From Octopus vulgaris (taxonomy: Eukaryota), in assembly GCA_951406725.2 (NCBI GenBank), contig OX597824.1, forward strand, positions 58,652,001 to 58,716,000: a stretch of DNA of 64,000 nucleotides, given 5' to 3'. The notes under the pieces were generated by a model. The model searched no databases. It worked only from the letters and a program-made list of their open reading frames with translations, and was not told the DNA's origin. How positions within the stretch are numbered: the first letter of the stretch is position 1; each line of letters begins with the position of its first letter. Of this stretch, positions 10,860-60,054 are shown in pieces. The translations under genes were made by a program, and so were the position numbers.

Positions 10860-11125
10860 TATACGTGTGTGTGTGTGTGTGTATGTGTGTGTGTGAGTGT
10901 GTCTGTGTGCCTTTGTGTCTTTATTTATTACACACCACTGCTTGATAACCAGTGTTGGTGCGTTTACGTCTCCGTAATATAGCGGTTTGGTAAACGAGAC
11001 AGACGGAATGGGTGAATAAGTACCAGGCTTTAAAAAAGTAATAAGTACTGGGGTCGATTCATTCGTCTAAAAACTCTTCCAGACGATGCCTCAACATGGC
11101 CGCAGTCTAATGACTGAAACAAGTA
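10860..11125 (+). mobile_element. SINE family B 3' module preceded by (TG)n
   Basis: GCTTGATAACC.GTGTTGGTG..TTTACGTC, AATAAGTACTGGGGTCGATT, CAACATGGCCGCAGTCTAATGACTGAAACAAGTA. Confidence 0.8.
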
Positions 11126-11159
11126 GTGAATATTTTGGAAATACATGCTACTATCTCCA

Positions 11160-11547
11160 ACTGAAGATTGCAAAGCATGTTTTTCTCATGTTGGGGAAAA
11201 TGGCGCCAGAAAAAATACTCATGCTTCAAAAAGCTCACAAAGATTCTACAATGAACAAAACACAAGTTAACGATTGGTTTTCACGCTTTAGGAATGGTTA
11301 CTTGTCGTTTGAAGATAAACCTCGTTCAGGACGACTGTCGTTTTCTCGAAAGAATGAAAACATAACAAAAATTCATGAACTAATCTTGGAAGCCCATCGC
11401 CGAACAACTGACGAACTTGTTGATATGTCTGGTGTGTCCTGGAGCTTCTGGAAACGAATTTTGAGCGAGAAATTGCGAATAAAAATAGTTGCTGCAAACT
11501 TTTTGTGCCTCGCTTGCTCACGGAAGATCAAAAGCAGTCACAACTGA
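11160..11547 (+). pseudogene. mariner transposase N-terminal (bipartite HTH) fragment, truncated by the adjacent Penelope-like insertion
   Basis: LGK...MLQKAHKDSTMNKTQVNDWFSRFRNGYLSFEDKPRSGR...ENITKIHELILE.HRRTTDEL...GVSWS...ILSEKL, followed by an out-of-frame VPR; typical mariner N-terminus. Confidence 0.85.
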
Positions 11548-11559
11548 ATGCATGTCCAT

Positions 11560-11604
11560 TGTCCGGAAATCTTCCGTCACACAACTGTGACCTCTTCAGC
11601 GACA
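11560..11604 (-). ncRNA. Variant minimal hammerhead-like motif in the left pseudo-LTR
   Basis: TGTCG-CTGAAGA-G-GTCACA(GTTG)TGTGAC-G-GAAG-ATTTC-CGGACA; non-canonical at GAAA and at the stem II closing pair. Confidence 0.5.
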
Positions 11605-11714
11605 CTTTTCGTTTTCGTGTGTGTTCTTGCTCCACTTACTCCATTCTGTTCTTCTAAGATGTGTATCCTTACGTGCGCATGCGTTTGTGTCCTTGTTTGT
11701 TTGTGTGTGTGTGT

Positions 11715-11755
<41 letters not shown>

Positions 11756-13217
11756 CGTGTGTGTGTTGTGTGTTGTCTGTATGCTTCTGTGTTTGTTATA
11801 GGTTTTAGCAACTGTGTGGCCTTCCTCTCAGTCCCATCCTCTCGACCCATTGAGCTGCTGCTGTCCTAAGACCCGAAAAAAATATATGGTACATTTCCTG
11901 TATTCCCCTGCGTATGTGTGTTCGCCAATGGTGTTGCAATGGTGGTAGTTGTTGTTATTGCCATCGTTAGCACCGTCGCTGCTGCTGACCGTGTTAGTTG
12001 TGTTGTTGACATTATTAAGGCCGTCCATGAAGTTTCATGTGTTTGTGTGTTGTGTATGTATCCATGTCCTTTACATAGTGTTTTTTTATTCATTTTATCT
12101 ATCGCTGTCTTACATTTATCACGGGTATGTGACATATATTTAGATATTCATTTATTTATCTATTTATATATTTATTCATTTACTTTAAAACATTTTTTTA
12201 TGCATTTGTCTCTATTTCTCGTATCACGGGTAAGTGCATATATGTTAAATGTGTATGAATTACCCTGCGTGTTTTGTGTATAATTTACATTTTTTCTCCT
12301 TTTCCCTCTCTCTTCTCATCCCTAATGTCTTTAGTCATGTGGTGCGGTGTTACTGTCCCATTCGTGTTTTCTGTTGAGGTTCGGTCTGTCTACTATTGCG
12401 TGTGTAGCCTATGTAACCTGTCTAAGTGTCGTATCAGTTCTATGTGTCGATAGTACTTTAACCTCTACATTATTAATCGAACTTCCATGTTCTGCCTGAG
12501 CATGTTGGTAGAGTACTGACGAACTTTTTCCTTCTTTGAACTCTCTCGTGAATCTTCACCTACACGCTCTTCTATGCAGCGTGCAGTTTCTCCAATGTGG
12601 GTAGTTGTCATGTTTCTGCACCGTCCCTCAGTACATAGTAAGCTATATACTACGTTTCTTACCTTACAGTTAACCTGTGGGTTCATCCAACACATAACAC
12701 CATTGTACTCCGTATAGAGGGACTTATCAAAGAGATATGTATTGTAGATCAGGGATTTTAATGGGGCACCAGGCCTCTCTGCTACTTTTAATTCGTAGAT
12801 TAATGTTTTTCTAAAAAGGTGTGCTAGTTCGCCGCCAGGCGTAGCATCAACAAACATGACACACTGGTATTTTTTGTTGTCATACCAAGTGTTGGACTCA
12901 TCTTATTACTGTTGCTTTCCGTGCTGTTCCAGGATTTACTCCTGTACAGCGGGAAGATCCTCTTAGCATCACTCTCTATGATGGCGTTGTACTTAGTCCT
13001 GGCTTCTTTGTACACTTCTTTGTACACTCCTGTCCTTTTGGTTGTAGCCAGAGAACTGCATTCGGTGGATGAAGTATTGTATGTGTCTTTCCAATTCCAC
13101 AGGGTCGCACATGCAAGACACATTCTTCATAATCCTCACTAAGTCGGCTATCAGAATGTTGAACATCACTGGTGGTACTTATGAGAAATAGCAACAGATA
13201 TATAAAAACAATTTAAG

Positions 13218-13267
<50 letters not shown>

Positions 13268-13815
13268 AATAAATAAATAAATAAATAAATATATAAATAT
13301 ATATCTTTTACATACCTGTGATAAATGTAAGACAGCGATAGATAGAATATGAATAAATAGATAGAAATGAATAAATAAAACTATATGAAGGACATGGATA
13401 CATATGTAGCGGACCCATACACATACAAACACACACACACATGAAACTTCGTGGACGGCCTTAACAATATCAATAACATGACTAACATGGCCAGCAGCAG
13501 CGTCGGTGCGAACGATGGCAATAACAACAACAACAACAACTACCACGATGACAACACTGTGGGCGAACATACATACACAGAGGAATACAGGAACAGTACC
13601 ATAAATTTTTAAGGCCTTAGAACAGCGGCAGCACAATGGAGAGGATGTGGCTGTGGGGAATGCCACACAGCTGCTAAAACCTATGACACACACACGCACG
13701 CATACACACATACACACAAGCAAACAAGGACACAAACGCATGCGCACATAAGGATACACATCTCAGAAGAACAGAATGGAGTAAGCGGAGCAAGAACACA
13801 CACGAAAACGAAAAG

Positions 13816-13860
13816 TATCGCTGAAGAGGTCACAGTTGTGTGACGGAAGATTTCCGGACA
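13816..13860 (+). ncRNA. Variant minimal hammerhead-like motif in the right pseudo-LTR
   Basis: TATCG-CTGAAGA-G-GTCACA(GTTG)TGTGAC-G-GAAG-ATTTC-CGGACA; core identical to the left copy, followed by an A-rich tract with AATAAA. Confidence 0.5.
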
Positions 13861-14022
13861 TAGGACAGGAGTTAAAATAATAAAATAAGAATAGTAATAA
13901 ACGAGTGAGGAGAAAAATATATATAGTGCGTGTGTTTATTTGGCCCCAAAATTACCATCCCGAAATACCACAGTATATATATATGCGTCTGTGGGTGGGT
14001 GTCTGTGTGTTCTTGTAGTTAA

Positions 14023-18809: not shown

Positions 18810-21445
18810 TAGAGTTATGACTCTTTGATTTTTATGGAAGTAAACAATTTCCTATAAGTAGGGAAAATAACCTTTATTTTAAGTTTTTTTAAAAAGACGT
18901 CAGCCCCAACAGAAGAAATGTAACACCACTTTTGACCCAAATCATGCAAAATTCGAATGGGATTCATAGTACCTTCTCAATTTTTTACCAAATTTGGTGT
19001 GTTGACTTAATGCAATGCAGAAGCAGTATATCGCAACATTTAACTTTCAAATTTTAGTAGTTTAGGAGTTATAGAGTTTTTAATTTGTTATCACTTAGTC
19101 CCTATTTTAGGAAATTTCTTCTTCCTCTTCATTTTCTTTCTGTGACGCTAAAAACTCTGACTATATTAACTGTTTCTCAGAATAGTAGTCATATCCAACT
19201 AGAGTATCTAAAATAATGTCACATAAGAGAAGTGCTTGTGTCACTCAAAGAAACAAGAAATCTGGACGAAGAATCTCATGCAATTTCAAGATTCACATAG
19301 CAAAAGAAGATTTGTTCCTCTAGAAGAGCATTCGTTGGAAAACAACTGCAGGATACCAATGAAAACTAAAAATATCTGTCGCTACCTGTTCCTTGGAGGA
19401 ACCATCAAAGGACGTAAAGATAGAACAAAGGAAATTTCGAAAGAAGTAACTTTTTTAAGGAAAAAGAAATTAAATTTTCCATATCTACCAATTATAAAGT
19501 TACAAGCTAAAGTAGTGCTGAATACATACAATAAATGTGTAAAACGAGGAAAATACGATTCATTGAAAGGTATTTTTGACATCACAAAGGAAAATAGTGA
19601 ATGGCTGTGCAGTGAGGATAGAAGCTTATATTATCTTCAAATTGAAAGCAAGGGACAGGTTGGGTTTGGAACTGGAAAGACAGCCAGTTCCAAAACCATC
19701 CATCCATCCAAAAGAAGAAAAGTGTCCTTAACGCCAACTTCAACCAGAACAACTCCAGTGTCATCGTCAACGTCTGAAGCAGAGACTGAAAGTGAATATC
19801 AAAACTCCGAAAAAATCAGATGAAGAATCCACACAAACAAGGAGGAAATATAGTAATACTGGAACTGCAACCAAGTTAGTAATATCTTCCAAGCTAGCAA
19901 CCCCAAACGCAGCAACAGTCTGTATACAATTATCTCAAGATGGAATCAATGTCGAGACTCCTTCCCAGTCCTTCCCCGATCGACTATCAAAGAAGCTGTT
20001 AAACTAAAAAAGAAAATGAAGAAAACAGTAGATTTAGAAAACTAGCCATTGCCTTTTGATGGTAAACGTATTGATGACCAAGAATACCAAGTGCTAGTTT
20101 TAAAGAATGAACAGAGAGATTTTAAGTTAATGGCACTCCAATTACCGAACAGAAAAGCTTGATACTGTTATGAAAGGAATAAGAGCTGTTTTAGATGAAT
20201 ACAATTTATGGAACTGCGTAAAGATGATTGTCGCTGATACAACGAGTGTAAAAACTAGGGAAAGAAATGGAATTGTCATTCAGTTGCAACGACTGTTTGC
20301 TAAAAAGGGTTTGAAAGAACCGCAATTTATTGGTTGTCATCATCATATTGAATATACATTCATCCTAGAGCTTCTAAGTAATTACGAGAAACTCTAGGCT
20401 AATATCAACAATGGTGAAAAGATTACTGAATCAGCAGAGATGACATGAAATTTCTATTTCATTTGACCAGAAATTTTTTTTTAGAAACCGGCAAATTTCC
20501 TGCTGTAAAGTTTCAATAAACACCCATCTTCAGTAATGCAAGATGGAATTCTCGAGCAATACCAGCTCTTTTGGCATTTATTCTTCTACCAGAGAAATGA
20601 GTTTTACTTCTCAATGTTTATCGATTCATATCTTACAGCTGTTGGTTTACTTGCCAAATGTTCAATGCACATGATTATTAGAAATTATTTGGTAGCCTGC
20701 AAGTTCATAAAAAAGCATTGAACTCTATAAAAAACTTTTGGAATCGAGAACCATTAAAACTGGAAATTCCCAGAACAAATCAGAGTGCAGGACGGGCAAC
20801 GAAGTGCCTTCAAGATCTTTATGATGTTTGTAAAAAGGAGAAATTTCTGCTTCGATTTATTTTATCTAACAAAACATATTAATTCTTTATGTTTGCTAAC
20901 TTTGATCACTCTTTTTCTTATACAGTTATTTAAAATTGGAATTAAACCTATAAAGTTAAAAATGTATATTGTTTTCAATTTTGTATGTTATCGAATGCTT
21001 GTAGTAGTTTCTGTCTTAAAATAGCCAAGTTTTGAACATTTGTATTTTCTGTTCAGTAATCTTAAAAATGTATAAATACAATTTTATTCCACATCCCTCT
21101 TGCATTTACAAGGATTTCGGCAGCTGAAATACTGAAGTGTGAATCTAGTGCAACCTGTGATTATAGTTTTAAAAAACTCATAACTCCGAAACTACTTCAA
21201 CTAGAAAGTTAAAATTTCAGATATACTATTTCTGCATTGCTTTGAGTCAGCACACTACGTTTAGTAAAAACTTGAGCAGGTGTTATGAACCCTACTAGAA
21301 TTTTGTATGATTTGAGTACGATTTCTTAAGTTTGGGTGACGTTTTTTGCAAATAAAGTACAATAAATGTTGATTTCCGGACTCTTATAAAATAATTCATC
21401 GAACTACAGTATAGGGTTATTAGGTTGGGAAAAGTCATAACCCTA
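18810..21445 (+). mobile_element. Complete but degenerate hAT-superfamily (hATm-like) DNA transposon, 2636 bp
   Basis: TIRs TAGAGTTATGACT (18810) and AGTCATAACCCTA (21445); imperfect subterminal inverted repeats at approx. 18890-19082 vs 21170-21346; imperfect 8-bp TSD ATGTAAAT/ATGCATAT; internal transposase remnants. Confidence 0.88.
19216..20880 (+). pseudogene. hATm-like transposase pseudogene (frameshifted)
   Basis: Fragments across frames: FDGK, IVADTTSVKTRERNG, QFIGCHHHI (CxxH), SNARWNSRAI, PRTNQSAGRA, matching the DGK / DTT / CxxH / ARW / NxxAER layout of hATm transposases. Confidence 0.82.
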
Positions 21446-21644: not shown

Positions 21645-22411
21645 GGAACAAAAACGCAATAGAGGACAATAAAATATCCGGTCAAATAGACGATACAAAG
21701 CAGAGAGGAAAAGCAACAATTAGAGGGATAAGAAAAAAGGACGAGTCATTCGTGGCCTTCTTTCGTCAGTCAAGTTGTCAGATGTCCTTACAGTTTCTGG
21801 TAGTTACAATTGAGACTCTTCAGTCTGGTTGCCCCGCAAAAAGTCTAAGCTAAGAGCATTAGATTTTTTGTAAGAAAGCAGGCGAATGTCATAACAACAA
21901 CAAAGACAAGAAACGGAGAACGTGTTACACAATTACATATACAAACAAGAATATAACAACAGGTTTCTTTCGACTGAGGATGAATCAAATTGAGCTGGCG
22001 TGTATAAACTGAAAGCCTAAAGACAGGAACATAAATGGTCATAAGAGATGTTGGAGGTCGTCAATCAGGCAAAGAAAGAAAAATCATGGTTGGCCGAACA
22101 CCGGCCACGCGGTAGAAGGCGAAAGGGTAGGCAGTAGCGGGTTGGAAGGATTATGGGAAGAACGGGAAAGAGAGAAAAAATCAAGGAGATGTATTTATAT
22201 TATATATAGATAGATACATACACACATCAATTTCTTTTTTTTTCTGTAAACAACTGGATTGTGGGGAACCACAGAAACCATCTCTTTAAAATACAAACGG
22301 TCGGTGGGCAGAGTCCCTACCCCTTGCTGCAAACTCACCTCTCAGACAATATCGAACTCATGGTACATATACAAAATACACACACACACACACGCACGCA
22401 CACACACACAT

Positions 22412-22937
22412 AAGCAAAGTCAGCTAATTAGAAAATCTCTATAAGTGATGAAAGTAGTAACTATACTGAGAAGTATTGTTTAATGCCACATCAATCTGGC
22501 CCTTCCTTAGGAACCGACGTTACTATCGTTTTTAACCCCAGAAGGAGCCTCCTCCAGCTGGTTATCGATGCAATCTATACCTGATATATATTGTAAGCAA
22601 GAGAGCGAATCTATATCATATTCTAGTAGACGACGGGATCACCGGACAGTATGGTTTCTGGTTATTTATGCCCATCGTCAGTGGTGAACACCCGTCCACT
22701 TCAAATAGCAATAATTCATTCCAACCTACAATATGCAGAAAGCCAAGCGACAATCAGTCACTGATCATGCAACAAGCAAAGTAGCTAGTTAGAACATCTC
22801 AATAACAAATAAGAGTATCAACTATACTGAGAAGTATTGCCTATTCCACATCAGTGTGGCTGTTCCGTAGGAATCGACGTTACTACCGTTTTTAAACCCA
22901 GGAGAAGAGGAGCCTCCTCCAGCTGGTTATCGATGCA
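22412..22937 (-). mobile_element. Retrozyme-like partial tandem repeat (period approx. 362 bp) containing one hammerhead ribozyme
   Basis: Direct repeats at approx. 22412-22572 and 22774-22937 share AACTATACTGAGAAGTATTG and GGAGCCTCCTCCAGCTGGTTATCGATGCA; a hammerhead lies in the single-copy middle; no ORF. Confidence 0.72.
22632..22696 (-). ncRNA. Type I hammerhead ribozyme with canonical core
   Basis: GACGGG-TGT-TCACCA-CTGACGA-TGG(GCATAAATAA)CCA-GAAA-C(CATACT)G-TC^CGGTGA-T-CCCGTC; extended stem I with an internal loop; one A-C mismatch next to the cleavage site. Confidence 0.8.
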
Positions 22938-23102
22938 CCCGACATATATATATGTATGTATATATATATATATATATATATATGTTTGTGTGTGTGTGTG
23001 TGTCTGTGCGTGTGTGTGTGTGCGTGTGTGCGTGTGTGCGTGCGTGTAGATCGCTAGCCACTACACATTCTTTATTTTCTCTCCTTATTTCTTTCTGTCT
23101 TC

Positions 23103-26970: not shown

Positions 26971-27030
<60 letters not shown>

Positions 27031-27032
<2 letters not shown>

Positions 27033-27612
27033 CATGTACAATTGGAAGTGTTATCATGTACAATTGGAAGTGTTATCATGTACAACTGGAAGTGTTATCA
27101 TGTACAATTGGAAGTGTTATCATGTACATTGTTTTGTCTTGGTATATAAGATGGGCTACAGCAAATATTCTGCTCAATACCACAGATTTGCTTGTCAGTT
27201 GTTAGACCTTAACAAGTTGAGCATGTCCTTTGGTGGCTGACGATATGTGCATCTCTGATCACGAGCAGAAGTAGTGGGGGAGCATCATAGCCATGTGTTG
27301 AGAGGGATTCTTTGGAGTTTGAATAGTTCACCTCTGGAAACATGGGTGGTTCTTTCAACATCCTTAAACAACCCTTATTCAGGGACCTTTTGAGTGGGAT
27401 GGGCTACTCGACCTGAAGAAAATTCTAACTGGGCCCCACCTGCAAGGTCATGTGCTGTTTATCTTGATATGATATCACCATGTCGCGCACATATGGTTGT
27501 GATGCATGTGTACCTGGTGTACCCTTATCAGACGGGTAGTCATGATGGGTATATTGGGCTTCGTAAATTTTACCCCAGGGTCACTTTGATGGCATGAACT
27601 GCTCTCTCACTC
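27031..27612 (+). mobile_element. Non-coding retroposon family C copy ending in (TAA)n, with a 22-bp tandem duplication at its 5' junction
   Basis: Closely similar to 27881-28220; ends CTCTCTCACTC(AAT)n; the unit ATCATGTACAATTGGAAGTGTT starts at 27031, 27053, 27075 and 27097, with a partial unit at 27119. Confidence 0.8.
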
Positions 27613-27880
<268 letters not shown>

Positions 27881-28220
27881 GTGCCAGGCAGTGGCTCTCG
27901 TGGCTTCTGATCTTAACTGATTGGAAGTGTTATCATGTACATTGTTTTGTCTTGGTATAAAAGATGGGCTGCAGCAAGTATTCCGCTCAATACCACATAT
28001 TTGCTTGTCAGTTATTTGACCATCACCAGCTGAGCATGTCCTTTAGTGGCTGACAATATGTGAATCTCTGATCACGACCAGAAGTAGTGGGGGAGCATGA
28101 TAGCCATGTGTTGAGAGGGATTCTTTGAGGTTTGAATAATTCATCTCGGGAAACGTTGGTGTTTCGTTCAACAACCCTTATTCAGGGACCTTTTGAGCGG
28201 GATGAGTTACTCGACCAGAA
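27881..28220 (+). mobile_element. Second retroposon family C copy, 3'-truncated
   Basis: GTGCCAGGCAGTGGCTCTCG...TTGGAAGTGTTATCATGTACATTGTTTTGTCTTGG aligns with 27108-27420. Confidence 0.8.
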
Positions 28221-28753
28221 GTGCTGCGGTATTATCTTGTGACGCACATGGTAATCTTGGAGGGAAAATATGAAATTAGTCGTCTATATAAGTTTGGAGA
28301 TGTTGACTACCTTGTGTTATGTTTTTCTGGCGCTTGGTCGAAGATGCAAAGGGTGGGTTTTTAGCATTTTCAAATTTATAATTCCCGAAATATTATGCCG
28401 ATGAAAGAAATGAATTTGTATAATTCTAATCCAGAAACGCGTCCATAATTAATCGTAGACTGTTTGATTTCGTTATTTTTTCTTATTTTTGCCTACGTGA
28501 GTTACAAATATTGTTGTCTGTGGAGTCATATTTGTAGTTAAAAGAATTATCTGTCTTTTGGCTGCTATTTCTAAATTTTCGGTATGTGGTGAAGCAACTT
28601 ATTGCTAAACCCTTAATTATATTTATAAATATATAAAAAACAACTTTTTGTACACGTTTTTACCGATAATGTTTTTTTTTTCCATACCGAAACTACTAGG
28701 TAAAATTTATTAATTATTAAATTAATAATTCTTTACCCTATATCTGTAATGAT

Positions 28754-36871: not shown

Positions 36872-38912
36872 TGTGTGTTTATGGCGTGTGTGTGTGTGTT
36901 TGTGGCGTGTGTGTGTGTGTAGGTTACTCTGTTTTTGTGTTTAAATGAACTGAAAATACATTAGTTTTAGTCTTTAGTACATGTATGGGTAACCGTTTTC
37001 GAGACGCAGGCTATAGGAGACATGATTCATCATCAGGCGGGCAGCATTACTAAAAGAATTCGGGGTAATTATTCATTAGCCGTAGCCCATGACTGCTTCG
37101 AATTATTATTTTGATACTTAGTGAGTCTTCTTTTCCCATTGTTTGTGCCCTTTATTTCAATAAAATAACATCCAGTATATCAATATGTTGCCCCTTTTCT
37201 CATATTTGTATTTGTTGTAACTGTTTAGTCTCAGGTCAGTTTTGAAGAAACAAGAATGACAATTGTATTCGACTTCTATTTTGTATGATTGTATCTGAGG
37301 CCATATTAAGCTAAGAAAATGTTTTACTGGACTATATGTTTCAATTTGTAGATTTGGCTGCCATTTCTGCCGTATCATATGACCAAGTAACGGATCCTCC
37401 ATTGCTTTTTCTATGGAATCAGTCAATAGTTTCATCTTCCTTTCTTCTTTCCTCCTATTATAATTCTGTCGAATCTTCCTCTCCCTCATCCTCATCACCT
37501 TTCTCTTCTTCCTCATTATAATCATAAGATAATTAATTGCATTTACATACGCACAAAGTGCATTACCTTTATTTACAAGGGCGCCACTGATCTAAATAAG
37601 TGTATTTGAAGAAATGTTGAAAGTATTTGAAAGCTGTTGAACTGAACTCTGACAAACAATAACACTTGAAGGAATTGGGGAAAAGAACATTTTATTTTGC
37701 AGCAATTAAAAAATATTACTTTATCTTAAAGGTCTGTTTGCCAGTAGTGCTTGATAGCGACCAATCAGAATAGCACGGGCGGGAAAATGTGTGCTTGTGC
37801 ATGTGTGTGTGTGTGTATTTGTGTGTGTATGTGTGTGTGAGCGTGCGCGTCTGTGTCTGCGTGTGTGTGAGCGCATGTGTGTATGCGTGTGTGTGTGTAC
37901 GTGCGTGCTTGTGTGTATGTATATGCGTGTGTTGCTGGATCGCCATCGTTACTCATTTTGCCCACTAAAGACGTTATGTTTTGAATTTTGAAAATTATCA
38001 AATTAGAATTAATGTGTGGGAAAACAATTGACTTAGAATCCAACAGAGAAAAGAATTTTGATTGTTAAACACCAAAAATTATCCACATATTTTATTGGCA
38101 ACCTCAATTACAGTCGAGTCAATGTTGAAAAATATCATTAAAAATATATCTGTCACCTATGTTTCAAAATCTCTCAACTTCAAGAACAACTATGACGACC
38201 ATATTTTACTCCTGAAAATGATGCAACAGTACGAAATGATATAATATTTGCAATGAAATGGTTTTAAATAGGCGGGGAGGAAAAAACAAAAAACTCAGAA
38301 ATTACTCATTTTCCTCCACTTACTTTTGCTTCCCACCACCTATTGAAAACTAATTATCATTGATTATAGATGCATGTTGGTATATAACATTTCTGACTTT
38401 TTATGAAAATTGATTCAATTATTTCACCATTCAGTAAAACCGCACGTGCGAGCTCGTATTGTCGTCACGAAACATTGCTCGCTAAAACTACATCCCTGAA
38501 CTATGAAATCCAAAGAAGAATATTTTGCGGAAATGCTCTTAATCTACCACAACACGCGATAATATGTAAAGTGACAAAATCGTTAGAGTGTAGAGGAAAG
38601 CCGTTCTGTCTTTAGTTATGGCAATTCACATCTGACCGTAACAAAAATATTCGGATATATTTAGCAAATCAGATTAACTAATGTGACCATTTATATTGAC
38701 AGAGTAAAGATTTCTCTGATAAACATGAGACGCTAAGATTAATAGATTAACATGCAACCGCAATATACACATGATAAAAAATAAAATAAAATTTATTTTA
38801 GGCAAATTTTCCTTTCGCTGGTTAGACACGAAAATCGAAAAATGGGTAAATCTCAGAAAACAATGCAGTATTAGTCGTGAGAGTGCATAAATATATATAT
38901 ATATATAAATAT

Positions 38913-39470
38913 ATATAAAAGTAAATAAATGGTACAACGGGGCACCGATATTTACTGGAAAATAGCAATCGTAATAAATACGACGCTATTGTATAGCTTC
39001 ACTGCGTATATACTAGCAAAGACGCGTGTGTGCAACAAACATGAAAAAATGTGTCTTACCTCTAAGAAGAATATCTGATAAATGGAAATCGGATAATGCA
39101 GGACCGGTTTCTGACTCTTCAAATACGTTTGACAACGTAGATTTGATTAGTCTTTATCAGCTGCATTTACCTAGACGAAATATCAAATGTTGCCACATCT
39201 ATACCAGTACACTCGTCTGAATGGCAAAACGTTAACAGAACGAGAATAGTGAAGAAGTTTCAATGAAAATAATAATTCAATACGAATGTATTACTTTCCA
39301 GTAAAAGATAGCCCATAAGGGTAAAATTATACATATAAAAGTAAATAAATGGTACTACGAGACACCGATATCTACTGGAAAATAGCAATCGTAATAAATA
39401 CGACGCTATTGTATAGCTTCACTGCGTATATACTAGCAAAGACGCGTGTGTGCAACAAACATGAAAAAAT
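38913..39470 (-). mobile_element. Retrozyme-like partial tandem repeat (period 420 bp) containing one hammerhead motif
   Basis: 138-bp direct repeats at 38913-39050 and 39333-39470 (4 mismatches) with a hammerhead between them; no ORF. Confidence 0.75.
39095..39167 (-). ncRNA. Type I hammerhead ribozyme with extended stem II (G8A core variant)
   Basis: AATGCAG-CTGATAA-A-GACT-AA-TCAAA-TC-TACGTT(GTCA)AACGTA-TTTGA-AG-AGTC-A-GAAA-CCGG-TC^CTGCATT; perfect 7-bp stem I; palindromic stem III ACCGGT. Confidence 0.78.
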
Positions 39471-40850: not shown

Positions 40851-41932
40851 TTATATATTCATATACATATGCATATTTATCATACAGCTGCATATATATA
40901 TAGATACATACACACATATATACATATCAACCCAGCAGGAAAGTTGTAATATTGAGTAGGCAGAATTGAAACTCCATGTTTAATATACTTATGTACACTA
41001 GGTGTATTATGTGACGTGTGTGAATATAATATACAAACATACAGAATATATGTGTACTTACATATGTATATGTCTGTGTGTGTGATATACATATACGGCT
41101 AAACATATATATGATTATAATATATGTGTGTGTATGTATGTATGTTACTCCGTGTATGTATGTATATGTGTGTTACTCTGTGTGTGCGTGCGTGTGTATG
41201 CATACTTTACATTGCTGATGTGAGTGTACATGCTTTAAATTGACATCAATATTCGATGTTATTAAAAATATGATATGCTTCGGTTTGTTTTCATGCTGTG
41301 TTAGTTTTGGTAATTAACATATGCAAATTAACCTTACTATATATAAAATATGGTGCATTTTCTATGTGATTATAAGCTGCATTCTTTGTACATTGCAGCA
41401 AAGTAAATTGAAGTCTGAAGAGATGAAAATTTTATGAATTTTAAACTGCACTGAGATTGATACTCCGGCTGAGCTATCAATGTCTGCGAGTATAATCCCA
41501 TATTTTATTACAGAGAAGATCTTTACGCTTACACGCACACACACACATACACACACGTATATGTCCGTTTATTCCTGTATACATATGTGTGCGTGAGTTT
41601 TTATTCAACGGTGTCTGGAAACGCGTTATTTCTTACAACCAGAATACCGGTACGGTTAACGTTAGACAACGGTATTCGGCTTGGTGAAAATGTTGGATTC
41701 CTTTGAATTGGTTGTGCGATTGATCAGTTGAATAGTCAATTGCCCGGACACCAAATCTTTTGAAAAACGTCAACCAACATGTGGTTTTGCATTAAGTTTT
41801 CGTCACGTTTGATTGTTTTGTGTTTTGACAACCATCCGTAGGTACTCCTGCTTTAAAGCTAATCACGTAATTTGTCATGTCGTTGGCAGCGCATGTGAAC
41901 ATGTGTTTCATAATGTTGCTTGCCGTGATGTT

Positions 41933-43920
41933 GCATCTTTACCATCTCGTCTGGCAGCTTGTTCCACGGATCCGCAACCCGGACGGAGAAAGCTCCTCTC
42001 CTTCGATTGAGATGAAATCGTCGCAGGTAGAGCTTTTCGGAATGACCCCGCAGCCGACGCTCTGGAGCAGGAGTGAAGAGCAGCTCTTTCGAGAGGTTAC
42101 ACTTTCCGCTTATGATGTTGTGGGCGAGAATGAAATCACCACGGCAGCGGCGTTTTTCAAGAGAATAAAGGTCGAGCGCCCTCAGCCTTTCTTCGTAGGA
42201 CAAATTTTTGAGACCATGAACCATGCGGGTAGCCAGCTTCTGGACTCTTTCGAGATGCTGTATGTCTTTGAGGAGATAAGGAGAAGAGGCTTGAATCCCA
42301 TACTCCAATATGGGTCTCACCAGCGTGACATAGAGTGGAAGGAATATGGCTGCTGTGAGCATTCCCAATGACCGTCGAATCATGAACAGAATTCCGCGTG
42401 CTTTGTTGGCAGCATGGACGCACTGGGCCGAAGGCGAAAAGGAGGAATCCACCAAGATACCCAGGTCCTTTACCTGATCGGTCCTCTCCAGCAGCAGACG
42501 ACCCGGCTCGAAATCAAGTTGAGTTGCAGGAGTAGAGCCGACAGGCAGATGACAGCACTTTGACACGTTCAGACACAGGTCCCAATCGTTAGACCACTTC
42601 CAAATTTGGTGGAGGCATCGACGAAGATCCTCTATATTACCGCGAGGAGCGACCAGTTTGATATCGTCGGCAAATAGAAGGGTGTGTTGCGTGAGGTCGT
42701 CGGGAAAGTCATTTATGAAGACTAAGAACAACAAGGGCCCAAGCACTGAACCTTGAGGCACGCCACTGCTCGCACTGGAGACGTCGGACCGCGAACCATT
42801 AACTTGGACTTGGAAGGAGCGATCTGAGAGGAAGGCACCAACCCATCGTACAATATCCGGATGGAAACTATATGCTTGAAGCTTGACAAGTAATAGGCGG
42901 TGGTTTACCGAGTCAAAAGCTTTGGCAAAGTCCAATAGAACGATGTCAACAGCATCACTATCATCGAGGATGCGCGTCACCAATTCTTCCATTACTAGTA
43001 AGTTGGTCAAGCATGATCTCTTCGGCACGAAGCCGTGTTAGGAATCAGAGATAGAGGCTGTGTTTAGGAGGTGGAGCATCATACTTTTCTTAAGGATGGT
43101 TTCGAGCATCTTGCTGATTATTGATGTAAGGGAAACCGGTCGGTAGTTAAGCGGGTCTTCGCGGCTCCCTTTCTTGAAAATTGGGCAGATTATCGCTGTT
43201 CTCCAGTCTGCAGGTATAACACCCGTCGCCAATGACATATTGAATAGTCGTGTTAAGGGCTCGCAGATGACTGGAGCCAACGCTTTGATAACCCGTGGGT
43301 GTATGCCGTCAGGGCCGTGACCCTTGTTGACATCGAGGCCCTGAATAACACGTTTGACTTCGTCCCGCGTGATGACCAATCGAAGCATTGGAGGTACCGA
43401 TCTATCAAATAGAGGGGGTTCACGACCATCATCTTGTTTGAAAATAGTTGAAAAAGCCTCGGCAAATAATTGACTCTGTTGATAAGGGTCCTCAATCGAT
43501 ACGCCTGTTGAGTCTACCAACGTTGCAATCTGGTTGTTTAAGCGGGAATTCCGCTGGACATGGGCAAAGAAGGTTTTTGGATTGCTACTGGCATTTGCCG
43601 CGATTTTGTATTCATAACTGAAGCGTTCTTTCTTTTCAATTTTCACGGCTCGGTCTTGTTGAGTTTTGTACACCTCAAAAGCTGCAGTCGAATCCAGATT
43701 TTTGAATTCAGCCCAAGCAATATCTCTGAGTCGACGTTCTCGTTTAACCTTCTTCGCCACCCAGGGCTTGTGTTTCTTCCCCCTGGGAAGCCCAACGGGA
43801 ACTGCCTGGTCGGTCAAACAGATTACATATGCTTTGAGGGATGACCATAGTTCGTCAACTGAGGACAACGTCATCAGGGATCGCCAGTCCAGAAGCGCGG
43901 AAGCCTCGGTTAGAATTTCA
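41933..43920 (-). mobile_element. CR1/L2/Jockey-group LINE ORF2 (RT), truncated at both ends, one premature TAA at 43038-43040
   Basis: ORFs 43038-43874 and 41859-43028 are in the same frame: GPDGIHPRV, NYRPVSLTS, LDFAKAFDSV, GVPQGSVLGPLLFL, FADDIKL, KDLG, RLRGH...FSVRVADPWNKLP. Confidence 0.95.
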
Positions 43921-43934
43921 AGATTAATTGCAGA

Positions 43935-44347
43935 TATATGTTAAGTATATGCGGCTAATGAAATTTATTATAATAGAGCTGCTACTATTCCATATTTGAA
44001 TTCATTCTTATGTATGCACTTGCCGAGCATACCTCTACATGGTTTTGCATGCCATGAACATATTAGTCGTGGACTAGCTAGGTCATTCGCCTCCGATAAT
44101 GTCGGGTACGTAAAGTTGACAAGCCACAACAATGGCGATACATCGATGTCGATTAATCGTAGATGATGGGATTGAAGGTGAGTTAGCTCGCCTGTCCATG
44201 ACTCTGAGGTATATTAGTACACGGAGCTTCGAGAGAGTACATACTCCACCGCACCAATAGCAGCCCATCGGCAAATATACGAAGCATATACGTTAAGTAT
44301 AAGTGGTTAATGATATTTATAATACTAGAGCTGATTTAATTTCATAT
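43935..44347 (+). mobile_element. Decayed retrozyme-like unit (period approx. 352 bp)
   Basis: Approx. 60-bp direct repeats anchored by GTTAAGTATA at 43940 and 44292; hammerhead-like motif and long flanking stems between them. Confidence 0.55.
44108..44160 (+). ncRNA. Degenerate type I hammerhead-like motif
   Basis: TTGACAA-GCCA(CAACAA)TGGC-GATA-CATCGATG-TC; three core substitutions from CTGACGA/GAAA; palindromic stem III. Confidence 0.5.
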
Positions 44348-51329: not shown

Positions 51330-54300
51330 AGTACAATAATAGTTATATTTGGGCAACAAAGACTTATATTTATTCAAGACAAGAAGTATATGAAACAGTG
51401 GTACAGTCATACGTTTTTATAAAACAATGATGCCGTAAGGGAAATTAAATGGAAACCTTGAGGATGGTTCGATTCACCGAAATATTCTAAATACTTGATA
51501 ACTTTAACTAAGCATTCAGATGGAATCCATTCAACCCTTGGGCTGGCAATCAAAGATTTGAGACGGTGGACGTATTGTTTAATGTGCTAGAGGAAGCGAA
51601 ACGTCACTCTTTCACACCACTCAGGAGTAAAGAGCTCACTCGGCTACCACCATAATGTGATCAAAAATTCTTAAAAAGTAAAAGTAATCTAGGTGCCGCT
51701 TACAATAGCAATTCGCAAGTTAGTGGACTTTGAGGACAACCCAGAAATCCTTGAAAAAAAGGAAATAAAAACTTTAAATTGATCAGAGTCTGGGACCAAA
51801 CTTCTTATCCAAACATACCAAGATGACATTGAAGCTATCCCTGACATAATAGACTATGTGGACGGCACATACCTCCTCGTCACTGTAGAGGGCAGAAGGC
51901 CAAATAACCATACATGTAGTGCGCTAACGTTTTCTGCCCTCAGCACCTGAAGGCTGTCTGCCCCCAGCAAACCAGCAAACAGATAAAAATCCCTCTCCTA
52001 CCAACGCCACATCCCATACTGGCAACATCGGCGGACACGATACTACCAAAAGCCCACGAACGTCAGCAACAGCAGCAGCAGCAGCAGCAAGAGTAGCAGG
52101 GCTACCATGCAAGAATCAACACCAACGCGTGTAACAATACCACAAATAAAAGACATGCCCTCCACAACTTGGTACATGGAGTGTGACAGTGAGGGGGCGG
52201 TCAATTTTGAATAAAAAAGAAAAAAAGAAAAATACAACTTGAAAAACGTAGGACATACAACACCATCCAATCCACAGTCACCGCCAAGAGGAACACCACT
52301 ATGCTCAACTACACAACCAGCATCAACAGCACAACTGATAACATCTCAAACACAACCAAACTGTCACCTGCAACAACAACAGCAAATACAACGAAGAGAC
52401 ACAAAATCCACGCACTGCACATCAATAAATATCAGCAACAAAAATCTACTCCACTACATACAACACAACCCCAGCATATCGGAAACAAATTACATATCAC
52501 CCCAAAAATTGCACCACTCACACACATTAACATTATTCCAATAGATCAAAGCACATATACAATGTTAAAAAAGAAAATAAACAGACATTCTTGTGAAAGA
52601 ACCCATAACTGGTCAGAAGAGTGGAGCAACTGTCCTTCCTCTAAAAGACTAAGGTAAGTAGTCTTTCCCACTTTTTCCCACTGTAGTCAACATGGCCTTA
52701 CTCAGGATATACTCAGAATAAATGCATGTAACCTGAAGTCATCCTGGAAGCAGGGCCACCTGCCCAACGACTCCCCAGTTCACTGAATATAGAAATGGCG
52801 GCCATCAATGAGAGCAGAATTTCCGAGGCACGAATTTTCGCACCCAGTTTCAGCGGCTACAACGTGAGGACATCTAGAAGCTGGCCAGGATTTGAAGGCA
52901 GAGTCACTGTGTTGTTTCAGAAAGGCTTCGATTTCGTGATAAGTACCATCTTCTTGGACCCAGAAGTAAGCTGATGGCGTTGGACGTGACCATCAGCAAA
53001 GGTTATCCTTTCAGGGTAGTGGCTGACAAGGAAGTACGGTCTGAGTTCTTCAGACATCGTGAGACCTTTCTTGGAACATCCTGCACTTTCGATGACTGGA
53101 TGCACGAAGGGCAATTCGCCTGGTTAGATGGTCTACTCTACAAGCTTTACTTTTATATGCCAGATTTGTTCGGTAACCTCTTGGCAGACGTCTACAGCAA
53201 CTGGCAGCAGAATGGGAAAATTCGCAGTTCTATGAGCCATGGAGCTGTGAGGCTGCTGAGAAAGGACAAAAAAAAAACAGAGGAAAATATCGATAATTTT
53301 AGACCCACAATTCTGAAACATGCAGAATTTAAAACTTTGACCGATGAGGTTGGCACCTCTCGTCGGTGCTCTAGTGGGAGAGGCGTAGACATACCCCTTC
53401 CCAATCAAATTTTATTGACGACAGCCTCAGCCTATTGCAATACATCATAGAGAGAATGGCTAAGGAACCTGGCACGGGTCGGACCCAGATCAACTTAGAT
53501 CAACCGAAAACTTTCGATGGGTTCAACCATCGTTACCTGACGGTAGCCGGCTTCGAGCCCGTTTTTAGGGGCTGGATCGCTGCATTGCACAGCGACATCT
53601 GCTCTGTGGTTAGAGTGAATTATGGAACCCTTTAACATCATTAGTTCAGTCCGTCAATAATGTCCCTTTTCATCTCTTTTGTCTGTATTGATTCTTGAGC
53701 CATTACTACACAAGTTGGTCCCGCGCGAACTAGGATGTTGGAGATATGTGTCAGCACATGCCAACGACATCACTGTAGTGGTGTGGAACACCAAATACGT
53801 TGAAGTGATCGACACAACTCTCACGGTGTAGGAGGCGGTAACAGGAGCAAAAATTAACCAGGAAAAGTCAGTGGACCTGCAGTTCAGGAGCCGGAGTAGA
53901 AAAACCATGGTATCCAATAGCATCGTCGAGCGCTGAACGGACGGATTTAATTGTAAGGAGTCTGGTCCGAACTTCCAGACGGACGAAAACTAGGACGAGT
54001 AACCTCTTTCACCCAGAAATGGCTGAAAGAAAGCTATACCTGAAAGGTCCGGCAAAAGTAGCGAACGCATTCATCACGTCCGTCATCTACTATTGCCTGA
54101 TCATCGTGCCTTGTCTTGGTCCACATCTACTGCACTGAGCTCTCATTCTTTCGCTTTTCGTGGAAGGGATAGACTCCACTGGTCAAGTGGTCCATTTGCT
54201 GACAAGACTCGCATGGAGGACAGGGTATGCCGTGGCTTATGTACTCAAACATGCGCTGAGGCTACAAGGTCTCCAACTCATCGTTGACGATGAGCAGGTG

Positions 54301-55350
54301 TGGTCGCCGTTCGCAAAACACTTTTTGCCCCAGCTTGTCTCCTTGACGGAGCTGTAGTCATGGGTCAAGTGAAGACCAAGAGGAAGGGCTTGGAGACTGG
54401 AATGTCTTCAAGCACTCGCAGCCTTCAGCATTACGATCGGTGGAAACTCCAGCTTGGCATTCTATAGAGATTTAGTGGAGAGTAATAGCAACAACGTTCT
54501 TGGGGGGATTTGGGGCGTCGACGATAATTAACAAGCCAATCTATTCCGGAGAACTCCCGATCAAGTGTCCATGGACAATTTCCAAAAAGCCTAACCTGAC
54601 AGTTCTAAGAGAGAGCATTGCCAGTTCGAGATAAACTTTACAGACATGGATGTGCTATGAAGCCAATCCTTTCCGAGATGCGCACAAGGCGAAACCGTCC
54701 TGAACGTACTCGTCCATGGTCTTAGAATTGCTAACATGTGGATTTATGTCGAACAGCTGCTGCCACGTGCAGAATGGATCTGGTTATCAGCTCAGTCTAT
54801 CACGAAGATTTCGCAGCCGCCTTCCGCTCGCTGGGAAGATCAGACAGTTTATTTTTATCTGCCTGGTGGTCATGGCGAAAGAGATAGTATGGTGAAAAAC
54901 ATCTGAAAGAGCTAAAGACCAGCACTTTCCTTTTCGGTGAAGCTCTGGTTAGCTTTTGCAAATTTCACTTGATGAGGAAAATCAAGGCGGGAAGGATAGT
55001 CCTGATTTCCAAGCAGTTTGTTGAAAGGTGGATGAGAGAGGCGATCATGACCCAAGTGAATGGGCTTGCTCTGAGTACGCATCTGTAGATAGGAGGAACT
55101 TGGAAAAAGCACATTCCCAGGCGGTCAGTTTGACCGTAGCTTTTTGTGGGCTTTCTCCATGTGCGACCCTCAGAAGTTCTCCCTATTGAGCTTTTCACTG
55201 AAGATATATACAAATATACTGTTTGAATATATTTTCATATTTCGTTATAATGACTTTTTACACGCTAAAACCCACACTGTACCTTTCGGTGCCGTCTGTA
55301 CCGTTACTATTGTTTTTCTTCATGTAATCCCTGTGTGGCTAATAAAGAAA
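51330..55350 (+). mobile_element. Old degenerate Tx1/L1-like LINE: ORF1-like remnant, APE endonuclease start (approx. 52692), internally deleted RT, 3' end followed by (CAT)n
   Basis: LDGLLYKLYFYMPDLFGNLLADVYSNWQQNG, IDNFRPT and INLDQPKTFD are colinear with the ORF at 57563; same 3' terminus GTGGCTAATAAAGAAA; INACNLK/AAINESR endonuclease-like start. The 5' boundary is approximate. Confidence 0.82.
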
Positions 55351-57329: not shown

Positions 57330-57448
57330 GCCCGGCTGTGTGGTAACAACATTGCTTCCAAAGACATGGTTCTGGGTTCAGTCCTTCTGCGTGGCACCTT
57401 AGGCAAGGATTTTCTATAATAGCTTTAAGCCGACAAAAGCCTTGTGAG
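57330..57448 (+). mobile_element. SINE family B head fused to the 5' junction of the Tx1-like LINE
   Basis: GGCTGTGTGGTAA..CATGGTTCTGGGTTCAGTCC..GTGGCACCTTAGGCAAG..AAAGCCTTGTGAG. Confidence 0.82.
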
Positions 57449-57449
57449 C

Positions 57450-60054
57450 AGACGAGTGGAGAGCAAGAACGTAGGGTAGACTTCAGTGCCTACCTACATA
57501 GCCTGCCACGACTCTCGACAAGAAAGGCAGGGTGCTGCGAAGGTGCCATCACGGCGGCGGAAGTGCGGGAAGCGATGGCAGAATGCTCGAGGGACAAATC
57601 ACCGGGTTTGGATGGCCTACCCTACGAATTTTACTATTGTATGCCAGACTTGTTTGGAGACGTCTTGGCAGCGGTATACTGCAACTGGCAGCAAAACGGG
57701 AGCATACCCGGTTTTGTGAGTCGTGGAGCTGTAACTCTGCTGAAGAAAGATCCAAACAAGGGAAACATTATAGATAACTTTAGGCCAATCACTCTGCTCA
57801 ATGCAGACCTGAAAATTTTGACAAAGGTGTTAGCCAAGAGGTTGGCGCTTGTCATGGAGAAACTGGTCGACAACGCACAAACGTGCGCCGTGCCGGGCCG
57901 GAGCATCTATGACAACCTCCATCTGATGCGCTACATCATAGACAGGGTAGTTAACGAACCTGGCATGGGTGGGGCCCTGATCAACTTGGATCAATCGAAA
58001 GCCTTTGATAGGGTAGACCATCGATACTTGGAGGCAGTCCTGAGAGCGGCTGGTTTCGGTCCCGTCTTCCGCGGCTGGATAGCTGCCTTGTACAGAGGCA
58101 TCCGTTCGGTAATTCGCGTAAATGGACATCTATCGAGACCCTTCGACATTGCACGTTCGGTCCGTCAGGGATGCCCCCTCTCGGCGCTTCTATACGTATT
58201 GACTCTTGAGCCACTACTGCGGAAGCTGGCGACTCTGAGGGGCATCCCGCGAGAATTAGGATGCGGGACGAGCGTGTCTGCATACGCGGACGACGTCACC
58301 GTCATAGTGTCAAGCCACGAGCACATCGAGCGGGTCGGCGAGACACCGAAAGACTACGAAGCGGTGACAGGAGCAAAAATCAACCGGGAAAAGTCAGTGG
58401 GCTTGCGGCTCGGCACCTGGAGAAGCAAGCCCATGCCGTCCACCAGTACCTCCGTCGTGGGACGCTGGACAGACGGCCCGGTTGAGTTGCTCGGGGTCTG
58501 GTTCGGTCCGGACCTCCAAATGGAGAAGAACTGGAACGAGATAACGAGTAGGGTGGTCACTCTCGCCCAGCAATGGGCCGAGAGGAAACTGTCCCTAAAA
58601 GGTCGGGCGGAGGTGGTGAACGCGTACATCGCGTCCATCATCTACTACCGCCTGACCGTCGTACCTTGTCCCGACCCTACCATCACCAAACTAGAACGCA
58701 TTCTCTTCCGCTTCTTGTCGAAAGGATGCGTCCCGATGATCAGGCGTTCCAATTGCTGTCAACACCCGTTAAAAGGAGGACTGGGCATGCCGTGGTTGAT
58801 GATGCGCAGACACGCGCTGAGACTGCGACATCTCCGGCTCTATGTAGACGACGGTGAACAGGTGTGGTCGCCGCTTGTGAGGCACGCATTCCCGCAACTC
58901 GTCTCCATGACCGAACTACAGTCGTGGATCAAAAAGAGGCTGAAGAAGGGCGAATGGCACCGCGAGTGTCGCGTTGCTCTCAAGCAACTCTGCCGTCCCG
59001 GGTCGACCTTGAGTGACTTCAACACAACCAAAGCATTCTATAGGGGATTAGTGGAGGGGAGGTACGACGACGAGCTCGGGGCAAACCTGGGCGTCGACGA
59101 GGAATACCTGACCCGCCTGTTTCAAACGACTTTCGGCCCGGGACCTATGGACAACTTCCAGAGATCCCTGGCCTGGCGGTGCTACCGAGAAGCGCTACCC
59201 GTTCGGGATAAGCTCTATAGGCATGGCTCGAGAAACACGGGGCCGACCTGCCCGAGATGTGGGCAGAGCGACGAAACCGCTCTGCACGCAATCGTGCAGT
59301 GTCCAGCAATTTCCAACCTGTGGGCTTATGTCGAACGACTGCTGTCACGTGTGGGACGTGTCGGTTTATCAGCCGAGTCTATCGTTAATATCGTCACGTC
59401 TCCTTCCTTCAAACGGGAAGGAAGAGCTATTTTTATCATACTTGTGGCTATGGCGAAAGAATGTATCTGGTGGACGCGTCTGAAAGGATTAGAGACAAAC
59501 ACTTTCCTCTCTGGTCAATCTCTCATCAACTTCTTCAAGTATCACTTGAAGAAAAAAGTGAGAGTAGAGAGGCAAGTTTTGTCTAGTGAATGTTTTAAAA
59601 AAAGATGGGTGAATGTAGCAAGGATGGCACGTATGAATGACGAAGCCACCTTGACTATGATTCTATGAACCGTAAAAATTAATACAGAGAGTTGCTTATT
59701 TGCAAAAAAAAAAAAAAAAAAAAAAGAAATATAACATGTGACTTCATTGACCGAGGTTACCGTGGTCTTTTCCGTAGGCTTTTCTTTCCACGGGTAAACC
59801 TCACCTGTCCTCCCCTTTACACTTCATATTGACATTTCTGTGATAACGATCCCTATTGATCAATTTTTTTCCTCTCCCCCTTTTTTTTAACCCCCCCTTT
59901 TTTTGTCCTCTTTCTCTCCTTTTACGATCCCTTTTGATCGACCCCCCCTTTTTTTATTTTTATTCTTATTTTTTATTTTTTTTACCTTCAAAAGAAAAGC
60001 TCTACCTTGTAATTTGTTCTATCTGTGTGCAGCCCTTTGTGGCTAATAAAGAAA
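57450..60054 (+). mobile_element. Young 5'-truncated Tx1/L1-clade LINE with 3' UTR and (TATC)n tail
   Basis: Uninterrupted frame from approx. 57453 to 59668; pyrimidine-rich 3' UTR; ends GGCTAATAAAGAAA. Confidence 0.93.
57563..59668 (+). CDS. ORF2 C-terminal part: reverse transcriptase plus C-terminal CCHC (zf-RVT-like); endonuclease lost by truncation
   Basis: KSPGLDGLPYEFY, NFRPITLLNADLKI, LDQSKAFDRVDH, VRQGCPLS, YADD, LLGV, GGLG, CPRCGQSDETALHAIVQC. Confidence 0.92.
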   Translation: MREAMAECSRDKSPGLDGLPYEFYYCMPDLFGDVLAAVYCNWQQNGSIPGFVSRGAVTLLKKDPNKGNIIDNFRPITLLNADLKILTKVLAKRLALVMEKLVDNAQTCAVPGRSIYDNLHLMRYIIDRVVNEPGMGGALINLDQSKAFDRVDHRYLEAVLRAAGFGPVFRGWIAALYRGIRSVIRVNGHLSRPFDIARSVRQGCPLSALLYVLTLEPLLRKLATLRGIPRELGCGTSVSAYADDVTVIVSSHEHIERVGETPKDYEAVTGAKINREKSVGLRLGTWRSKPMPSTSTSVVGRWTDGPVELLGVWFGPDLQMEKNWNEITSRVVTLAQQWAERKLSLKGRAEVVNAYIASIIYYRLTVVPCPDPTITKLERILFRFLSKGCVPMIRRSNCCQHPLKGGLGMPWLMMRRHALRLRHLRLYVDDGEQVWSPLVRHAFPQLVSMTELQSWIKKRLKKGEWHRECRVALKQLCRPGSTLSDFNTTKAFYRGLVEGRYDDELGANLGVDEEYLTRLFQTTFGPGPMDNFQRSLAWRCYREALPVRDKLYRHGSRNTGPTCPRCGQSDETALHAIVQCPAISNLWAYVERLLSRVGRVGLSAESIVNIVTSPSFKREGRAIFIILVAMAKECIWWTRLKGLETNTFLSGQSLINFFKYHLKKKVRVERQVLSSECFKKRWVNVARMARMNDEATLTMIL

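Follow-up and report, generated by a model that had tools for sequence, protein, structure and literature searches.

The non-LTR retrozymes of metazoans are the closest described systems, and in Mytilus galloprovincialis their units measure 350-390 bp (Cervera and de la Pena 2020, PMC7229834). In the life cycle outlined in the available part of that work, arrays are transcribed, hammerheads free the monomers, which a host ligase closes, and the circle is copied to tandem DNA by a borrowed reverse transcriptase (RT). Penelope-like elements have been proposed as the helpers of retrozymes (10.64898/2026.07.22.740005; PMC7229834), and they are described as showing partial tandems, inverted copies and a bias for microsatellites (10.1101/2021.04.23.441226). 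Dispersed "monomer" derivatives that are unable to transpose are reported as common (Li, Clavereau and Pollet 2026, 10.64898/2026.07.22.740005); that survey comprised 35 genomes with no mollusc among them and, in the available part of its text, leaves the Penelope link untested outside vertebrates. For the giant squid genome a count of 235 Rfam hammerhead matches is on record. A literature search covering few subscription papers, and PMC7229834 apart from its supplement, returned no description of an octopus retrozyme family.

Here, an octopus locus was analysed within a stretch of 64 kb, referred to below as the window. At this locus a 362-nt unit without ORFs is repeated head-to-tail for about 1.5 copies, and we consider it likely that these represent a decayed octopod retrozyme with Penelope-like mobilisation and a single, poorly cutting hammerhead. 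The unit, its family, the head-to-tail junctions in other copies and the lost pairs are the observed part of this explanation. Read in this way, the family would extend retrozyme-like elements to octopods, and the locus itself is an ordinary, fossil repeat copy.

The 362-nt unit and its flanks

The element and its surroundings are made up of the following parts.

22376..22411, no strand: (CA)n microsatellite of the left flank, from the sequence
22412..22773, minus strand: 362-nt non-coding unit, one full period (repeat period; 41% G+C)
22412..22590, minus strand: direct repeat A, the 3' half of the unit (repeat search and alignment)
22774..22948, minus strand: direct repeat A', a partial upstream copy of about half a unit, which enters the TA microsatellite
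22949..23047, no strand: (TA)n then (TG)n microsatellite of the right flank, from the sequence

In the hammerhead sense a half unit comes first and a full one after it, giving about 1.5 copies arranged head-to-tail; the 3' end of the unit falls near 22412, a point at which many other copies terminate as well. The initial annotation had placed the motif between two direct repeats of approximately 160 bp. The repeats are present, and the repeat search recovers them at 22412-22572 and 22774-22937 with 82.5% identity and a 362-nt period; their length needs correction, as global alignment extends them across a 7-nt gap to about 22590 and 22948, giving about 178 nt, with 146 of 170 aligned letters of A and A' identical (K2P 0.158). 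The repeat search found no second copy of the unit elsewhere in the 64-kb window.

The longest ATG-started frame in the element has 39 codons, and a search for an RT or GIY-YIG ORF gave no frame of at least 120 codons within 2 kb of the element, save microsatellite frames. No Pol III A box with one mismatch or fewer is present in the element, and B-like matches occur in it only with a mismatch. The 362-nt unit falls within the size and composition of metazoan non-LTR retrozymes (170-400 nt, ORF-free, low G+C). It resembles the Mytilus units, in a comparison made by description and not by sequence, in its type I hammerhead, its short ORF-free unit, a G+C content below 45%, a mollusc host and the many copies (PMC7229834). 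Unlike the arrays of metazoan non-LTR retrozymes as described there, this locus carries one hammerhead in 1.5 units. A target-site duplication cannot be told at a locus with microsatellite flanks. On the right, at 22938-22983, the start of the TA microsatellite is a TATA-rich motif of the unit itself, and this run may have grown from the truncated end of the element.

The hammerhead in the family and in this copy

The letters of the minus strand at 22696-22632, the CUGACGA/GAAA core and a UC cut site between 22645 and 22644 are as quoted in the initial annotation, and sequence and period agree with its placing of an extended type I hammerhead inside a 362-nt repeat unit. The motif is divided as follows.

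22632..22696, minus strand: type I hammerhead motif, decayed here (sequence, scan, family contigs, folding)
22675..22681, minus strand: core strand CUGACGA (C3-A9), intact (sequence)
22674..22674, minus strand: U after A9 and before stem II, probably left unpaired as an additional base in the fold of the family
22659..22673, minus strand: stem-loop II; 4 bp and a 7-nt loop in the family, two of the four pairs lost and one loop change here
22645..22658, minus strand: GAAA (22658-22655), stem III, U16.1 and C17, with the cut predicted to fall between 22645 and 22644
22639..22687, minus strand: proximal part of stem I, pairing 22687-22682 with 22639-22644; six pairs in the family, the first of them A.C here
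22583..22739, minus strand: long imperfect hairpin that extends stem I, with the hammerhead at its tip (predicted fold)

The conserved core of hammerheads (CUGANGA, GAAA and UH) is present in this copy, which is the only perfect-core type I match that a structural scan found in the 64-kb window. In 60 shuffled windows there were two such matches with a stem II of at least 3 bp and six with one of at least 2 bp, and the bare motif is hence uncommon, not overwhelming, against shuffled sequence. No Rfam hammerhead was obtained at the gathering score in 64 kb, nor at E<=10 in stretches of 801 and 151 nt; Rfam matches in one of the searches were rejected as microsatellite artefacts. Exact-pattern scans gave 0 hits each in metagenome contigs, viral contigs and prokaryote genomes. 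The shuffles and the Rfam searches bear on the proposition that we are dealing with a non-autonomous DNA element or satellite, for example a Helentron- or Pearl-type unit, which looks like a hammerhead by chance. The partial duplication, the internal inverted repeat and the microsatellite flanks would suit it, as would the empty Rfam search and a rate of about one relaxed motif per 30 shuffled windows. We regard it as highly improbable: the window repeat searches found no terminal inverted repeats at the ends of the element, and the family letters described below mend all three stems together and yield Schistosoma-like loops. That the motif is real is settled by these family contig data.

Parts of the stretch were present in 20 of 24 listed sequencing runs from four organisms, and four runs (X1, X2, X10 and X22) were aligned to the stretch at 80% likeness, using contigs only. 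The DNA runs X1, X2 and X10, from three organisms, gave 1203, 1108 and 1111 aligned contigs, with 678, 610 and 578 of these, respectively, less than 90% alike; contig totals per run are not copy numbers. The family is large and dispersed, and this copy is far from most of its members. The many copies expected of a retrozyme are reflected in more than 1100 contigs in each of the three DNA runs. In run X22, guessed to be RNA and possibly DNA, 28 contigs fell on the repeats and 22628-22741 received none; this result is taken neither as a sign of expression nor as one against it.

Majority letters were taken site by site from summed contig depth, and 40 of 250 differences were listed. Among those listed, five lie inside the 65-nt motif and four of these restore Watson-Crick pairs, namely the first pair of stem I, the second pair of stem III and, in a stem II of 4 bp, two pairs; the chance of those exact letters is 0.014 under a 60%-transition model applied post hoc. 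At 22644 the majority has A, a U on the minus strand, in 666/761, 857/962 and 151/151 of the summed depth in X1, X2 and X10, which gives an A-U pair in place of the A22682.C22644 mismatch at the first stem I pair of this copy. The majority letter at 22648 (640/765, 784/962 and 86/127) gives the second C-G pair of stem III, closing a 4-nt loop; stem III of the family thus has two C-G pairs with a 4-nt loop, and one of the pairs is lost here. Those at 22659 and 22662 form the 4-bp stem II between 22673-22670 and 22659-22662. The UGG/CCA pairing assigned to stem II in the initial annotation is one base off this register and is broken by the majority letters. The change at 22668 alters loop II so that it ends CAAAUA. 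With majority letters taken site by site, stems I, II and III have 6, 4 and 2 bp, and the three helices of a hammerhead are present in the family.

Since the family stem II uses 22673-22670 and 22659-22662, U22674 is left unpaired after A9, and no change or deletion at 22674 appears among those listed (40 of 250 and 12 of 33). An extra unpaired U after the core is therefore likely in the family, judged from these alignments. The CChMVd (+) hammerhead (PMC1636495) likewise has an extra base after A9, which is A and not U. The family seemingly differs from metazoan non-LTR retrozymes, as far as PMC7229834 describes them in its available part, in this unpaired U before stem II and in a stem I hairpin of about 47 bp. 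It agrees with the invertebrate retrozyme motifs of the same source in a two-pair stem III with a tetraloop and in a self-paired RNA, which is predicted here.

By inspection, the features of a loop contact are present: U22638 and U22688 as the 5' U and 3' pyrimidine of loop I, and A22663 as the 3' A of loop II. Loop I of the family starts UCC and loop II ends CAAAUA, as in the Sm-alpha hammerhead of Schistosoma mansoni (PMC2632901); unlike in that hammerhead, loop II of the family is one base longer and loop I is 4 by 5. A contact between loops I and II is likely in the family by this analogy, and the loop II contact suggested at the outset gains from the same likeness (PMC2632901).

Beyond the motif, the fold of the long hairpin has a z of -2.44, and 3 of 200 shuffles were equally stable. 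Along a path of 47 pairs, chosen by eye from the predicted fold, Watson-Crick pairs number 28 in this copy and 36 with the majority letters; random letters at the same 15 sites reached 36 pairs in 100 of 20000 draws. The change at 22698-22627 is two-sided, U-A here and C-G in the majority, and two of the 13 listed hairpin pairs are not improved by the majority, 22712-22612 staying unpaired and 22728-22594 going from U-A to U-G. In this hairpin, 22700-22693 pairs with 22625-22632 with probabilities of 0.65-0.90, against 0.12-0.23 for the distal GACGGG/CCCGUC helix of the initial annotation; the two registers are mutually exclusive, and the former is preferred. The long-hairpin register creates a 4-by-5 internal loop I that begins UCC. 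Cephalopods are subject to heavy RNA editing; no editing signature was seen here, as A-to-G changes in the hammerhead sense account for 2 of the 15 changed letters in the 13 listed hairpin pairs.

Compared with the family majority, this copy lacks 4 of the 12 pairs that make up its three core stems, three more than the A-C mismatch that had been taken as its only clear defect. Its hammerhead fold stands at -16.6 kcal/mol and its best fold at -24.9 kcal/mol, a gap of 8.3 kcal/mol, and in the best fold the core strand is paired with the strand of stem III and the cut site. Five of the six proximal stem I pairs have a probability above 0.9; pairs of stems II and III do not exceed 0.003, so the three helices do not come together in this copy. 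The 362-nt circular monomer, which the initial annotation had proposed to fold, has a z of -1.5 for this copy and is not clearly better than shuffles.

The decay can be compared with that of the direct repeats. Among the differences listed, 16 have a partner site in the other repeat, and this repeat carries the family letter in 12 of them; three more (at two sites) are common to both repeats and one differs in both, and a further two lack a partner. Since the other repeat keeps the family letter in 12 of 16, the repeats diverged after insertion, by about 8% each if they were identical at the start. In the 65 nt of the motif five changes are listed, against 5.2 expected at the rate of the repeats: the copy has decayed at the neutral rate of its repeats. 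At that decay all 12 core letters are expected untouched in about 37% of copies, and for this reason the intactness of the core is no sign of selection. More generally, an intact hammerhead core in an old copy is no sign of activity.

From the folding, this copy is predicted not to cut well and is probably dead. The motif had been put forward as the best candidate for a still-active ribozyme, and such a ribozyme could cut a host transcript or pair in trans with another copy. The core letters and the UC site are indeed intact, five of the six stem I pairs are highly probable and a fortuitous 3-bp stem II is available. The four lost core-flanking pairs, the preferred fold in which the core pairs with itself, the minimal probabilities of stems II and III and a neutral rate of change, at which over a third of equally decayed copies would retain the core, are at odds with this, and in Xenopus eight of nine predicted intact dimers failed to cleave (10.64898/2026.07.22.740005). 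Activity of the copy is accordingly held to be quite improbable.

The age of the insertion was approached through a contig of organism D (X10 record 9), which spans 22401-22658, reaching into the flank, and differs at 17 of 258 letters; the X10 word share of 0.12 agrees with the 0.121 that such a number of differences would leave, and the small word shares of organisms C and D are otherwise not counted as evidence. From its sequence this contig is likely the same locus, and the insertion for that reason probably predates the split from D. In organisms A and B, contigs agree with the window at 231/232 and 176/176 letters. A locus seemingly shared with organism D is what one would expect if the ribozyme had been domesticated here as a host regulatory element. 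The motif has changed as fast as the repeats, and the pairing letter at 22644 is found in all summed depth of the organism D run, for which reason its loss in this copy looks recent and tolerated; domestication is, against these observations, barely credible.

Junctions, ends and Penelope-like footprints

The two junctions of the unit were searched for in other copies. Diverged contigs bridge 22590/22591 with at least 31 letters on each side (X1 record 5, X2 record 21 and X10 record 13), and 22773/22774 is bridged likewise, with at least 31 letters on each side, by X1 records 7 and 8, X2 record 22 and X10 record 15; these bridging contigs come from the 32 pieces listed of 3779. Other copies thus have the unit closed head-to-tail, and the head-to-tail arrangement of retrozymes is found as 1.5 units at this locus together with the bridged junctions elsewhere. 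Two hammerheads in a row were seen in no contig, the contigs being short and no piece spanning the stretch. Joints that go back by 356 or 357 were considered as signs of arrays and rejected, as they are mere switches between the two homologous repeats.

Other copies end in a consistent manner. Among the 24 loose ends listed of 925, many contigs depart from the unit at 22422-22432 into dissimilar AT-rich DNA, with 21-66 contigs for each and a flank agreement of 0.46-0.63, and this common exit marks a shared 3' end. Opposite-strand joints make up 6 of the 15 listed (of 144), five of them being found in both X1 and X2; joints at a likeness below 95 often arise from repeats. The summed contig depth drops from the 3' end toward the hammerhead, which would fit 5' truncation and is not used as evidence here, as depth cannot rank the parts and is confounded by the divergence of this copy. 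Taken together, the partial tandem, the fixed 3' end, the inverted copies and the microsatellite targets weakly suggest a non-autonomous partner of a Penelope-like element.

The same footprints raise the question of whether an autonomous Penelope-like element has this unit as its pseudo-LTR, the locus being the truncated partial-tandem end of such an element with no independent small circle. Partial tandems, inverted copies, microsatellites and an unpaired base 5' of stem II are all shared with Penelope pseudo-LTRs (Cervera and de la Pena 2014, PMC4209133; Craig et al. 2021, 10.1101/2021.04.23.441226). The fixed 3' end and the inverted joints also fit, the unpaired base being known from Penelope-type minimal hammerheads (PMC4209133), and Xenopus retrozymes match pseudo-LTRs (10.64898/2026.07.22.740005). 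Unlike pseudo-LTRs as described in the available part of PMC4209133, the unit has no RT-endonuclease ORF in or beside it and its motif is not minimal; with 6, 4 and 2 bp and its loop-loop features it is canonical in size, in contrast to the minimal motifs described for metazoan Penelope elements. Moreover, contigs of other copies span both junctions and cover the spacer, and the arms of the hairpin pair across the motif, for which reasons the 362-nt unit is taken as closed without an ORF. The pseudo-LTR explanation is therefore judged unlikely.

The preferred reading of a decayed retrozyme mobilised in a Penelope-like manner shares with Li et al. 2026 (10.64898/2026.07.22.740005) a derivative of the monomer type and the link to Penelope-like pseudo-LTRs. 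The locus falls outside the definition of an active retrozyme given in that work, two consecutive units with complete motifs. The life cycle proposed for the family is drawn by analogy with the retrozymes of coral, mussel and axolotl. Arrays of intact units would be transcribed on the minus strand, and each hammerhead, with a 6-bp stem I, a 4-bp stem II after the unpaired U, a 2-bp stem III and a loop-loop contact, would cut after UC. The resulting monomer of about 360 nt would be ligated into a circle by a host ligase, and the RT and endonuclease of an autonomous Penelope-like element would take the circle or a multimer as template, starting at a fixed 3' point. Insertion into AT-rich or microsatellite DNA would come to an early stop, here after 1.5 turns, and the inserted copy would then decay neutrally, by about 8% per repeat. 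As it has one hammerhead only, the locus would not have freed a monomer even as a fresh insertion, nor could it form a dimer in cis.

One may speculate further that the octopod family is living, and that intact arrays elsewhere make circles of 360 nt from an extra-U hammerhead on a hairpin of about 47 bp, with insertion footprints of the Penelope type. We regard this as possible and rather doubtful. If true, it would be the first invertebrate retrozyme that can be tied to a Penelope helper, and the long duplex would be a ready substrate for cephalopod RNA editing. Should intact arrays exist, the family would allow the proposed mobilisation of animal retrozymes by Penelope-like elements to be put to the test, and would supply a naturally occurring extra-U hammerhead for assays.

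Other elements in the window

The 64-kb window is AT-rich and full of microsatellites. A probable Penelope-like remnant occupies 11553-13867, with inverted repeats at 11553-12182 and 13254-13867 that are 74% alike; no sequence likeness between it and the 362-nt unit was detected. Inside these repeats lies a broken endonuclease-like ORF on the minus strand (12465-12902), for which no Pfam match was found. HMMER gave 117 relatives of this ORF, the best being an Octopus bimaculoides protein at 44%, and a word-based search for longer relatives gave none; among nine relatives scanned there was one GIY-YIG match and one RT match, both below the cut-off. The repeat ends of the remnant carry motifs resembling minimal hammerheads near 13820-13855 (plus strand) and 11560-11600 (minus strand), with CUGAAGA, one unpaired G, a 6-bp stem II and GGAA replacing GAAA. 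A fragment of a Mariner-type transposase at 11071-11547 on the plus strand (HTH_48, E 4e-5) is cut off by this remnant.

Inverted repeats at 18862-19081 and 21172-21377, 75% alike and about 2.1 kb apart, enclose a frame of 198 codons (19227-19823) with no Pfam match, and may be the remnant of a DNA transposon. A repeat of some 450 bases occurs twice, at 26971-27418 and 27809-28221, its copies being 82% alike; the repeat begins directly after (AAT)n and opens with a short tandem motif, and the structural scan found no hammerhead in it. The segment 37831-39649 has 142-nt inverted repeats (97%, largely TG microsatellite) and an inner direct repeat at 38909-39050 and 39329-39470 (96%), and resembles a non-autonomous DNA element.

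A LINE-type retrotransposon ORF in two pieces lies on the minus strand at 41859-43940 (RVT_1, E 8e-25). A second LINE-type ORF on the plus strand (57347-59668) has 773 codons with RVT_1 and zf-RVT, and an older copy, 65% alike, is located at 53090-54975. One relative of the second ORF is labelled as a protein of a bacterial MAG and may be host DNA in that assembly; its best named relative is from Argonauta hians, at 64%.
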